NCBI RefSeq assembly: GCF_003334785.1
Contig: NZ_QOWV01000057.1
Strand: one strand, 5' to 3'
Length of the DNA: 2,355 nt
Source: Escherichia coli
GTDB taxonomy: Bacteria > Pseudomonadota > Gammaproteobacteria > Enterobacterales > Enterobacteriaceae
Made by a program: the position numbers and the translations under genes
Notes under the pieces: generated by a model
What the model saw: only the letters and a program-made list of their open reading frames with translations
Told to the model about the DNA's origin: nothing
Database searches by the model: none
Shown here: one piece after another, positions 1 through 2,350 of the stretch
Layout: every line of letters starts with the position of its first letter
Position numbering within the stretch: position 1 is the stretch's first letter

Positions 1-19
1 CGTTATATCCGAAGCCCCC

Positions 20-412
20 GTGGTAAAAAAACGTCCCCGGCGGCCCAACTTCCCTTATGAGTTTAAAATCGCCTTAGTGGAGCAGTCACTGCAGCCCGGA
101 GCCTGTGTGGCGCAGATCGCCCGGGAAAACGGAATCAACGATAACCTGCTCTTCAACTGGCGCCATCAATACCGGAAAGGTGGCCTGCTGCCTTCCGGAA
201 AAAATATGCCGGCACTGCTTCCCGTGACGTTAACGCCGGAGCCGGATAATAAAATCCCGGCCCCCGCACAGGAACCAGAGCAGATAAATACACCGTCCGA
301 CAGTCTGTGTTGTGAGCTGGTTCTGCCGGCCGGAACTCTCAGGCTTAAAGGTAAACTGACGCCGGCGTTATTACAGACACTTATCCGCGAAATAAAAGGG
401 AGCAGCCACTGA
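20..412 (+). CDS. tnpA: IS66-family accessory protein TnpA (orf1), predicted helix-turn-helix DNA-binding protein
   Basis: 130-aa ORF from GTG at 20 to TGA at 410-412. The N-terminus (EFKIALVEQSLQPGACVAQIARENGINDNLLFNWRHQYRKG) fits the HTH pattern of IS66 orf1 and related transposase N-terminal domains. A Pro/Glu-rich linker follows, then a C-terminal segment (ELVLPAGTLRLKGKLTPALLQTLIREI) resembling the conserved orf1 C-terminus. The reading frame is open all the way to position 2, so the true start could lie upstream of the window, and no clear Shine-Dalgarno precedes the GTG. Confidence 0.85.
   Translation: MVKKRPRRPNFPYEFKIALVEQSLQPGACVAQIARENGINDNLLFNWRHQYRKGGLLPSGKNMPALLPVTLTPEPDNKIPAPAQEPEQINTPSDSLCCELVLPAGTLRLKGKLTPALLQTLIREIKGSSH
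396..401 (+). promoter_or_regulatory. Shine-Dalgarno-like AGGGAG for tnpB, embedded in the 3' end of tnpA
   Basis: AGGGAG at 396-401, 10 nt upstream of the tnpB ATG at 412-414. Confidence 0.5.
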
Positions 413-759
413 TGATATCTCTCCCTGCAGGTTCGCGTATCTGGCTGGTTGCAGGTATCACCGATATGCGAAATGGCTTTAACGGCCTGGCATCAAAAGT
501 TCAGAACGTCCTGAAGGATGACCCGTTCTCCGGACACCTGTTCATCTTCCGCGGACGCCGGGGTGACCAGATAAAAGTGTTGTGGGCTGACAGTGACGGA
601 CTGTGCCTCTTCACCAAACGCCTGGAGCGGGGCCGCTTCGTCTGGCCAGTCACCCGTGACGGCAAGGTGCACCTTACTCCGGCTCAGTTATCCATGCTTC
701 TTGAAGGTATCAACTGGAAGCACCCGAAACGAACGGAACGCGCTGGAATCCGCATATAA
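412..759 (+). CDS. tnpB: IS66-family accessory protein TnpB (orf2); unrelated to the IS200/IS605 TnpB nuclease
   Basis: 115-aa ORF, ATG 412-414 to TAA 757-759. The sequence (RIWLVAGITDMRNGFNGLASKVQNVL...PFSGHLFIFRGRRGDQIKVLWADSDGLCLFTKRLERGRFVWP) is characteristic of IS66 orf2 as I recall it from enterobacterial IS66 elements. The start overlaps the tnpA stop (ATGA), as is typical for the family. Confidence 0.92.
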   Translation: MISLPAGSRIWLVAGITDMRNGFNGLASKVQNVLKDDPFSGHLFIFRGRRGDQIKVLWADSDGLCLFTKRLERGRFVWPVTRDGKVHLTPAQLSMLLEGINWKHPKRTERAGIRI

Positions 760-778: not shown

Positions 779-2350
779 ATGGACACCTCACTTGCTCATG
801 AGAACGCCCGCCTGCGGGCACTGTTGCAGACGCAACAGGACACCATCCGCCAGATGGCTGAATACAACCGCCTGCTCTCACAGCGGGTGGCGGCTTATGC
901 TTCCGAAATCAACCGGCTGAAGGCGCTGGTTGCGAAACTGCAACGTATGCAGTTCGGTAAAAGCTCAGAAAAACTTCGTGCAAAAACCGAACGGCAGATA
1001 CAGGAAGCACAGGAGCGAATCAGCGCACTTCAGGAAGAAATGGCGGAAACGCTGGGTGAGCAATATGACCCGGTACTGCCATCCGCCCTGCGCCAGTCTT
1101 CAGCCCGTAAACCGTTACCGGCCTCACTTCCCCGTGAAACCCGGGTTATCCGGCCGGAAGAGGAATGCTGTCCTGCCTGTGGTGGTGAACTCAGTTCTCT
1201 GGGATGTGATGTGTCAGAGCAACTGGAGCTTATCAGCAGCGCCTTTAAGGTTATCGAAACACAACGTCCGAAACAGGCCTGTTGCCGGTGCGACCATATC
1301 GTGCAGGCACCAGTACCTTCAAAACCCATTGCACGCAGTTATGCCGGAGCGGGGCTTCTGGCCCATGTTGTCACCGGGAAATATGCAGACCATCTGCCGT
1401 TATACCGCCAGTCAGAAATATACCGTCGTCAGGGAGTGGAGCTGAGCCGTGCCACACTGGGGCGCTGGACAGGTGCTGTTGCTGAACTGCTGGAGCCGCT
1501 GTATGACGTCCTGCGCCAGTATGTGCTGATGCCCGGTAAAGTCCATGCTGATGATATCCCCGTCCCGGTCCAGGAGCCGGGCAGCGGTAAAACCCGGACA
1601 GCCCGGCTGTGGGTCTACGTCCGTGATGACCGTAACGCCGGTTCACAGATGCCCCCGGCGGTCTGGTTCGCGTACAGTCCGGACCGGAAAGGTATCCATC
1701 CACAAAATCACCTGGCCGGTTACAGCGGTGTGCTTCAGGCCGATGCTTACGGTGGTTACCGGGCGTTATACGAATCCGGCAGAATAACGGAAGCCGCGTG
1801 TATGGCTCATGCCCGGAGAAAAATCCACGATGTGCATGCAAGAGCGCCCACCTACATCACCACGGAAGCCCTGCAGCGTATCGGTGAACTGTATGCCATC
1901 GAGGCAGAGGTCCGGGGCTGTTCAGCAGAACAGCGTCTGGCGGCAAGAAAAGCCAGAGCCGCGCCACTGATGCAGTCACTGTATGACTGGATACAGCAAC
2001 AGATGAAAACACTGTCGCGTCACTCAGATACGGCAAAAGCGTTCGCATACCTGCTGAAACAGTGGGATGCACTGAACGTGTACTGCAGTAATGGCTGGGT
2101 GGAAATCGACAACAACATCGCAGAGAACGCCTTACGGGGAGTGGCCGTAGGCCGGAAAAACTGGATGTTCGCGGGTTCCGACAGCGGTGGTGAACATGCG
2201 GCGGTGTTGTACTCGCTGATCGGCACATGCCGTCTGAACAATGTGGAGCCAGAAAAGTGGCTGCGTTACGTCATTGAACATATCCAGGACTGGCCGGCAA
2301 ACCGGGTACGCGATCTGTTGCCCTGGAAAGTTGATCTGAGCTCTCAGTAA
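779..2350 (+). CDS. tnpC: IS66-family DDE transposase TnpC (orf3)
   Basis: 523-aa ORF, ATG 779 to TAA 2348-2350. It has an N-terminal heptad-rich coiled-coil region with the IS66-typical FGKSSEKL motif (nt 953-976). A CxxC...CxxC zinc-finger-like pair follows (CPAC at 1169-1180, CRC at 1283-1291). Candidate catalytic residues are HADD (D at 1550-1555), QADAYGGY (D at 1742-1744) and NNIAEN (E at 2123-2125). Length and domain order match IS66 transposases. Confidence 0.95.

Follow-up and report, generated by a model that had tools for sequence, protein, structure and literature searches.

The stretch of DNA analysed here, called the window throughout, covers 2,355 bp of an Escherichia coli genome (assembly GCF_003334785.1, contig NZ_QOWV01000057.1) and carries three co-oriented genes, tnpA, tnpB and tnpC, according to the list of open reading frames (ORFs). 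The genes belong to a known, recently mobile insertion sequence of the IS66 family, and the RefSeq product name of tnpC is 'IS66-like element ISCro1 family transposase'. TnpC is an IS66-family transposase in which nothing essential differs from the catalogued family, and its identity was already known. Our study focused on the N-terminal, non-catalytic part of this protein, residues 8-171, corresponding to positions 800-1291 of the window. A first-pass annotation made from the sequence had described this part as a coiled coil followed by a CxxC-33-CxxC zinc-finger-like motif, and its coordinates were correct for a gene starting at 779. The features of tnpC that bear on this description were as follows, with model confidence given as the AlphaFold2 predicted local distance difference test score (pLDDT).

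779..2350, plus strand: tnpC, an IS66-family DDE transposase of 523 aa (NCBIfam transpos_IS66, NF033517, 477.9 bits against a cut-off of 180; four Pfam domains; RefSeq product).

803..952, plus strand: heptad-repeat coiled-coil segment, residues 9-58 (heptad statistic, conserved a/d pattern, AlphaFold2 helix 3-59).

953..973, plus strand: FGKSSEK motif, residues 59-65 (column conservation; AlphaFold2 break at residue 60).

959..1054, plus strand: second helix, residues 61-92, polar and charged (AlphaFold2, pLDDT 59-83; covered by Pfam LZ_Tnp_IS66).

1055..1132, plus strand: Pro-rich linker, residues 93-118, ending in a conserved LPxxLPR (no regular structure in AlphaFold2, pLDDT 57-85; consensus).

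1133..1306, plus strand: Cys4 zinc-ribbon-like β domain, residues 119-176, containing zf-IS66 (Pfam; AlphaFold2 strands, pLDDT 97-98).

1169..1180, plus strand: first putative zinc knuckle, C131-P-A-C134, of the CPxCG type (C131 in 91/92 sequences, C134 in 86/92).

1280..1291, plus strand: second putative zinc knuckle, C168-C-R-C171 (C168 in 88/92, C171 in 81/92).

TnpC residues 46-121: Pfam LZ_Tnp_IS66 (PF13007), E 2.6e-12, model positions 1-70 of 71.

TnpC residues 128-172: Pfam zf-IS66 (PF13005), E 1.3e-12, model positions 1-46 of 46.

Conservation was counted in a family alignment of 92 sequences, consisting of TnpC and 91 full-length representatives that were 33-51% identical to it. The relatives, 47,568 in number at E ≤ 0.001, were found in a scan of 1.84 billion representative proteins; a search with residues 1-185 gave largely near-identical fragments and did little to broaden the set. 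AlphaFold2, run on the 92-sequence alignment, gave a TnpC monomer with a mean pLDDT of 94 and a predicted template modelling score of 0.80. The hidden Markov model search that the first-pass annotation had proposed as a check matched LZ_Tnp_IS66 and zf-IS66 at nearly full model length.

The best PDB match of the whole TnpC model in Foldseek was the transposase of ISCth4, an IS256-family element (6xg8_A, E 3e-8, probability 1.0, 377 aligned columns). A sequence search of the PDB yielded no homologue with either TnpC or the 92-sequence profile, and the profile returned no chain at E up to 1; TnpC is not an IS256-family member by sequence, and the likeness is one of predicted structure. The parts of the ISCth4 report drawn on here (PDB 6xg8 and 6xgx; PMC7780238) describe a transposase that opens with a dimerisation domain of two helices. 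A small N-terminal DNA-binding domain, which follows the subterminal repeat, comes next, and after it a helix-turn-helix (HTH) domain and then an RNase-H-like core. The TnpC model showed domain types in this order too, with a pair of helices at the N-terminus, then a small β domain, then a helical region and the DDE core.

Residues 8-95 of TnpC were rich in Leu, Ala, Gln and Arg, as the first-pass annotation had pointed out; together with Glu these made up 64% of the region versus 44% of the whole protein, and the region lacked Pro and contained Gly at just two sites, G60 and G93. The heptad-like spacing claimed for all of these residues held for the first part and not for the second. In residues 9-58 the a/d hydrophobic contrast was 0.59, versus 0.21±0.09 in shuffled sequences, and was reached by 2/5,000 shuffles, while residues 59-95 had no significant heptad, with 2,430/5,000 shuffles reaching their contrast. 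The a positions were N9, L16, I23, N30, V37, I44 and V51, and the d positions were L12, Q19, M26, L33, Y40, L47 and L54. The pattern was shared by the family, as the mean hydrophobic fraction over the 92 sequences was 0.69 at both a and d, 0.32 at g and at most 0.18 at b, c, e and f. AlphaFold2 placed residues 3-59 in a single continuous helix, helix 1 (pLDDT 93-95). Residues 9-58 are therefore a conserved heptad-repeat helix, lying mostly N-terminal to the Pfam LZ_Tnp_IS66 domain, and form a coiled coil of the heptad type; a strict leucine zipper they are not, with Leu present at just four of the seven d positions.

The length of this helix varied among homologues in a regular way. The distance between the anchors corresponding to L12 and L54 was a multiple of seven (21, 28, 35, 42, 49, 56, 70 or 77) in 71 of 88 homologues, where one in seven would be expected by chance (binomial p ~5e-44). 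Therefore, the helix lengthens and shortens by whole heptads, as extended coiled coils do. An N-terminal heptad repeat, used there for transposase multimerisation, is also present in IS911 OrfAB and the IS3 family, a different family in which an HTH comes before the zipper and there is no zinc domain. The sections of the ISCth4 report used here cite IS911 OrfAB as an example of a true zipper (PMC7780238), and the ISCth4 dimerisation helices are described there as lacking heptads, unlike helix 1 of TnpC.

Helix 1 was followed by the FGKSSEK motif, which the first-pass annotation had called typical of IS66 transposases. It proved to be a family motif of the form FGxxSEK, with F or Y at 59 in 89/92 sequences, G60 in 88/92, S63 in 83/92, E64 in 89/92 and K or R at 65 in 76/92. 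In the AlphaFold2 model, helix 1 and helix 2 were separated at G60. This arrangement provides the starting point for the main rival explanation, in which helix 1 folds back onto helix 2 in an antiparallel hairpin within one molecule, or docks TnpA or TnpB, and no TnpC homodimer is formed. The model does contain two consecutive helices split at the conserved Gly, the strictly conserved FGxxSEK at their junction looks like an interaction site, and IS679 reportedly needs all three of its ORFs. In addition, the dimerisation domain of ISCth4 is likewise described, in the parts of the report used, as two N-terminal helices with no classical zipper (PMC7780238). Helix 1, however, spans 57 residues and helix 2 only 32, and helix 2 lacked a conserved a/d pattern; therefore, helix 2 would be unable to bury the whole hydrophobic seam of helix 1. 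Parallel dimers often have Asn at a positions, as TnpC does at residues 9 and 30, and length changes by whole heptads are typical of extended coiled coils, both of which count against this rival. We consider this rival unlikely, although it is the strongest of those weighed here.

The second part of the N-terminal region formed a Cys4 domain. The model placed strands at residues 119-123, 137-152, 155-168 and 174-175, and a separate model of residues 112-192 gave the same strands at pLDDT 90. TnpC has seven cysteines in this region, at 130, 131, 134, 143, 168, 169 and 171. The four chosen as putative ligands by the first-pass annotation, C131/C134 and C168/C171, were the conserved ones (81-91 of 92), while C130, C143 and C169 were not conserved in the alignment and set the window's TnpC apart from its IS66 homologues as three extra cysteines. 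The annotation named the second pair correctly and muddled the position of the extra cysteine, as C169 sits between C168 and C171. Its CxxC-33-CxxC spacing was also borne out. There are exactly 33 residues between C134 and C168, and of the 66/92 sequences with a strict CxxC-N-CxxC, 55 had N = 33, the commonest spacing. Two CxxC motifs 10-60 residues apart arose in 50/20,000 shuffles of TnpC, and the pattern is therefore more than chance.

The columns around the two knuckles (TnpC 127-137 and 165-177) were then compared across the family. At least two Cys were present in each knuckle in 84/92 homologues. Among the variants, three with one Cys in knuckle 2 had three in knuckle 1 (CxCxC), two replaced Cys by His, and one homologue (P0222) was without all four cysteines with the rest of the protein kept. 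Judging from these sequences, a total of four ligands appears to be maintained, as a single tetrahedral metal site would predict. The geometry of the model is consistent with this. Strands 137-152 and 155-168 formed an antiparallel hairpin with a two-residue turn, in which residue i paired roughly with 307-i; therefore, both CxxC pairs would meet at the hairpin base, with C168/C171 beside C134/C131. For the four-Cys proximity that the first-pass annotation had proposed to check by structure prediction, the model suggests two pairs at the base of one hairpin, as read from its strand register.

The domain resembles classical zinc ribbons (the NrdR N-terminus, Rpb9/TFIIS and ribosomal L37a) in having two CxxC knuckles, each beside a β-strand, with a first knuckle of the CPxCG type. 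Fold and profile searches of the isolated domain against the PDB gave no significant match; the weak, non-significant matches were all zinc-binding proteins and included these three. The lack of a significant fold match would favour an explanation in which the cysteine pattern is not a zinc site at all, and reflects disulfides, an Fe-S or iron centre, or conserved residues without a ligand role. Disulfides are unlikely in a cytoplasmic bacterial protein, and the CPxCG-type knuckle, the modal spacing of 33 and the retention of four ligands through 3+1 arrangements and Cys-to-His replacement form the signature of tetrahedral zinc. We regard this explanation as very improbable, and consider that the Cys4 domain would bind zinc.

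A further question was what a zinc-bound domain would do for the transposase. The region between the Cys4 domain and the catalytic core was helical in the model, and may be HTH-like by analogy with ISCth4.

1349..1528, plus strand: helical, HTH-like region, residues 191-250 (AlphaFold2 helices 191-202, 208-217, 224-237 and 239-250).

The place of the Cys4 domain in TnpC corresponds to that of the subterminal DNA-binding domain, residues 56-108, in ISCth4. In the ISCth4 report, so far as it is used here, that domain is described without a zinc site, unlike the putative site in TnpC (PMC7780238). The position of the domain argues against a second rival, in which the Cys4 domain binds zinc and serves as a protein-protein or target-capture module instead of recognising the inverted repeats. 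Zinc ribbons elsewhere serve both DNA-recognition and protein-contact roles, which counts in favour of this rival. The hairpin carries QLELI (residues 148-152), which resembles a β-clamp motif, and clamp-binding peptides were found in IS66 TnpC by Gómez et al. (PMC3971601). As a clamp-binding motif, however, QLELI was rejected, since it aligns with the conserved structural strand ExLxYxPA of the Cys4 domain and lies in no flexible tail. A protein-contact or target-capture role is, in our judgement, less probable again than pairing of helix 1 outside a TnpC homodimer.

Taken together, our preferred reading, to which we assign a probability of roughly 0.8, is that helix 1 multimerises TnpC, that zinc bound by the Cys4 domain stiffens the hairpin, and that the hairpin and the helices after it recognise the terminal repeats and deliver the catalytic domain. 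In the transposase multimer, the heptad helix of one TnpC would pair with its counterpart in another. The four conserved cysteines would bind one Zn2+ ion and hold the hairpin together at its base in the manner of a zinc ribbon. The rigid hairpin and the HTH-like helices would then recognise the terminal inverted repeats in their subterminal part, and this recognition would position the DDE catalytic domain at the ends of the element.

Several observations weigh against this reading. Literature and PDB searches found no solved structure or biochemical study of any IS66 TnpC, and for that reason dimerisation, zinc binding and inverted-repeat binding are all inferred. Helix 1 failed as a strict leucine zipper, and helix 2, besides having no significant heptad, was modelled with low confidence. 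The partner of helix 1 could also be helix 2, TnpA or TnpB.

The remainder of TnpC was consistent with an intact transposase. The C-terminal domains and the two preceding genes were placed as follows.

1334..2194, plus strand: DDE_Tnp_IS66 (PF03050), TnpC residues 186-472, E 5e-103, model positions 1-283 of 284.

2213..2326, plus strand: DDE_Tnp_IS66_C (PF13817), the C-terminal element of TnpC, residues 479-516, E 1.2e-15, model positions 1-39 of 39.

2..412, plus strand: tnpA, 3' part only (NCBIfam IS66_access_TnpA, 187 bits against a cut-off of 150, profile positions 80-189 of 190).

412..759, plus strand: tnpB, IS66 accessory protein of 115 aa (NCBIfam IS66_TnpB, 129 bits against a cut-off of 50; ORF list).

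The catalytic residues were D258 (1550-1552), D322 (1742-1744) and E449 (2123-2125), of which D258 was invariant and the other two at least 90% conserved in the alignment. A CxxH motif, C341-H344 (1799-1810), lay 19 residues past the second Asp; C341 and H344 were invariant, and R346 and R347 of the wider C-x-A-H-x-R-R motif, CMAHARR in TnpC, were at least 90% conserved. The α-helical insertion that interrupts the ISCth4 core carries a C/DxxH motif, according to the parts of that report used here (PMC7780238), and the position of this motif matches that of CMAH (residues 341-344) in TnpC. The agreement in domain order between the two enzymes includes this α-helical insertion with its CxxH.

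Since the window begins inside tnpA, the 130-aa ORF that starts with GTG at 20-412 is an artefact of the window cut; it is the tail of a TnpA that RefSeq lists with 225 aa and a start 266 bp upstream of the window. The stop of tnpA and the start of tnpB share one base in TGATG (410-414), which suggests translational coupling of the two genes. The only Shine-Dalgarno-like sequence before tnpC was GAGGA (773-777), unusually close to the ATG at 779, with one base between them.

The full element was 2,699 bp long, as defined by comparing three identical copies at unrelated sites (locus L001, 1181-3879; loci L002 and L003, both 881-3579). The window corresponds to element positions 320-2674. It is missing the first 319 bp, which hold the left inverted repeat and the tnpA start, and the last 25 bp, which hold the right inverted repeat. 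The ends of the element therefore lie outside the window and read GTAACCGGCTCATTTAAACCG... and ...CGGTTCTGACGAGTCGCTTAC, with the end sequences of the 2,699-bp element given as GTAACCGGCTCATTTAAACCG and GTAAGCGACTCGTCAGAACCG. The terminal inverted repeats are imperfect and have GTAA termini (GTAACCGG... and GTAAGCGA...), with GTAACCGG... and ...CGCTTAC at the ends of the three copies. Perfect target duplications of 8 bp flanked all three of these 100%-identical copies (ttttgagg, ttttatgt and gaaagatc, one for each copy), and in one copy the element split a prophage S49 peptidase gene. This element shares with the ISCro1-like IS66 elements of Enterobacteriaceae the four domain models, the operon order, termini in GTAA and target duplications of 8 bp.

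A megablast search of complete E. coli genomes gave matches in 2,906/5,426, and in 1,503 of these a single place covered at least 80% of the window. Full-length copies among the matches listed were 100% identical and annotated as ISCro1-family IS66, and the element was present at up to 34 places per E. coli genome. In several E. coli genomes an IS3-family (IS600-like) insertion splits the element in two (e.g., NZ_CP074717.1, 3018068-3021689). The first-pass annotation had taken the intactness of the N-terminal region as support for a functional transposase, and this view gained weight from the four Pfam domains, the DDE triad, the CxxH motif and the identical copies with 8-bp duplications. Judging from its sequence record, which combines intact domains with identical multicopy insertions and clean target duplications, the element is probably active.

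Most homologues carry a QLxLF directly after FGxxSEK, with Q in 79/92 sequences and a hydrophobic fourth position in 93%; this is the β-sliding-clamp consensus. The lineage of the window's TnpC differs from its homologues in lacking it, and TnpC and its close relatives have EAQER (residues 76-80) at these columns, inside IQEAQER (998-1018, residues 74-80). TnpB of the same element has QLSMLL at its residues 92-97 (685-702). In the work of Gómez et al. (2014, PMC3971601), peptides from IS66 TnpC that bind the clamp were tested, and the motif was reported to lie in TnpB in some cases and in TnpC in others. The presence of EAQER in TnpC and QLSMLL in TnpB fits this variable location.

Many database proteins of 221 aa and 234/235 aa, named as 'zinc-finger domain-containing', were frameshifted N-terminal fragments of TnpC. 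A programmed frameshift was rejected as their source, as the breakpoints were scattered from residue 118 to residue 200. The uniform lengths of the fragments were set by the stops of two alternative-frame ORFs, at 930-1445 and 1282-1485 (+1 and +2 frames). On the minus strand inside tnpC there were antisense ORFs of 99 aa (1030-1329) and 156 aa (1371-1841), and both probably just reflect the high G+C content of the coding sequence. An Rfam scan of the window gave no match, and a promoter and terminator scan stayed at background level. Two weak PADLOC matches, a coiled-coil-type one to LmuB (1.3e-4) and one of the TnpA fragment to DrmC (2.4e-3), were dismissed as composition or HTH bias.

The resemblance to ISCth4 allows a wider, tentative proposal, which we put forward as possible and would not rank beside the preferred reading. 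The TnpC of IS66 elements may be structurally related to the ISCth4 transposase, with the coiled coil and the zinc-clamped hairpin as the counterparts of its dimerisation and subterminal DNA-binding domains. IS66 elements might then move by copy-out/paste-in, with TnpC assembled on one of their ends as a dimer that resembles that of ISCth4 and is possibly asymmetric, and the length of the coiled coil (3 to 11 heptads) might set the reach from the dimer interface to the DNA-binding modules. Unlike ISCth4, IS66 additionally needs TnpA and TnpB.

Both N-terminal features already have Pfam families of their own, and this exact gene is annotated by RefSeq in many E. coli genomes, so the description amounts to little as a discovery. 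The functions usually assumed for the LZ_Tnp_IS66 and zf-IS66 domains still rest on sequence inference. What the analysis contributes for the family is the confirmation of an intact, probably active copy of the element in E. coli, and the trimming of the TnpC coiled coil to residues 9-58.

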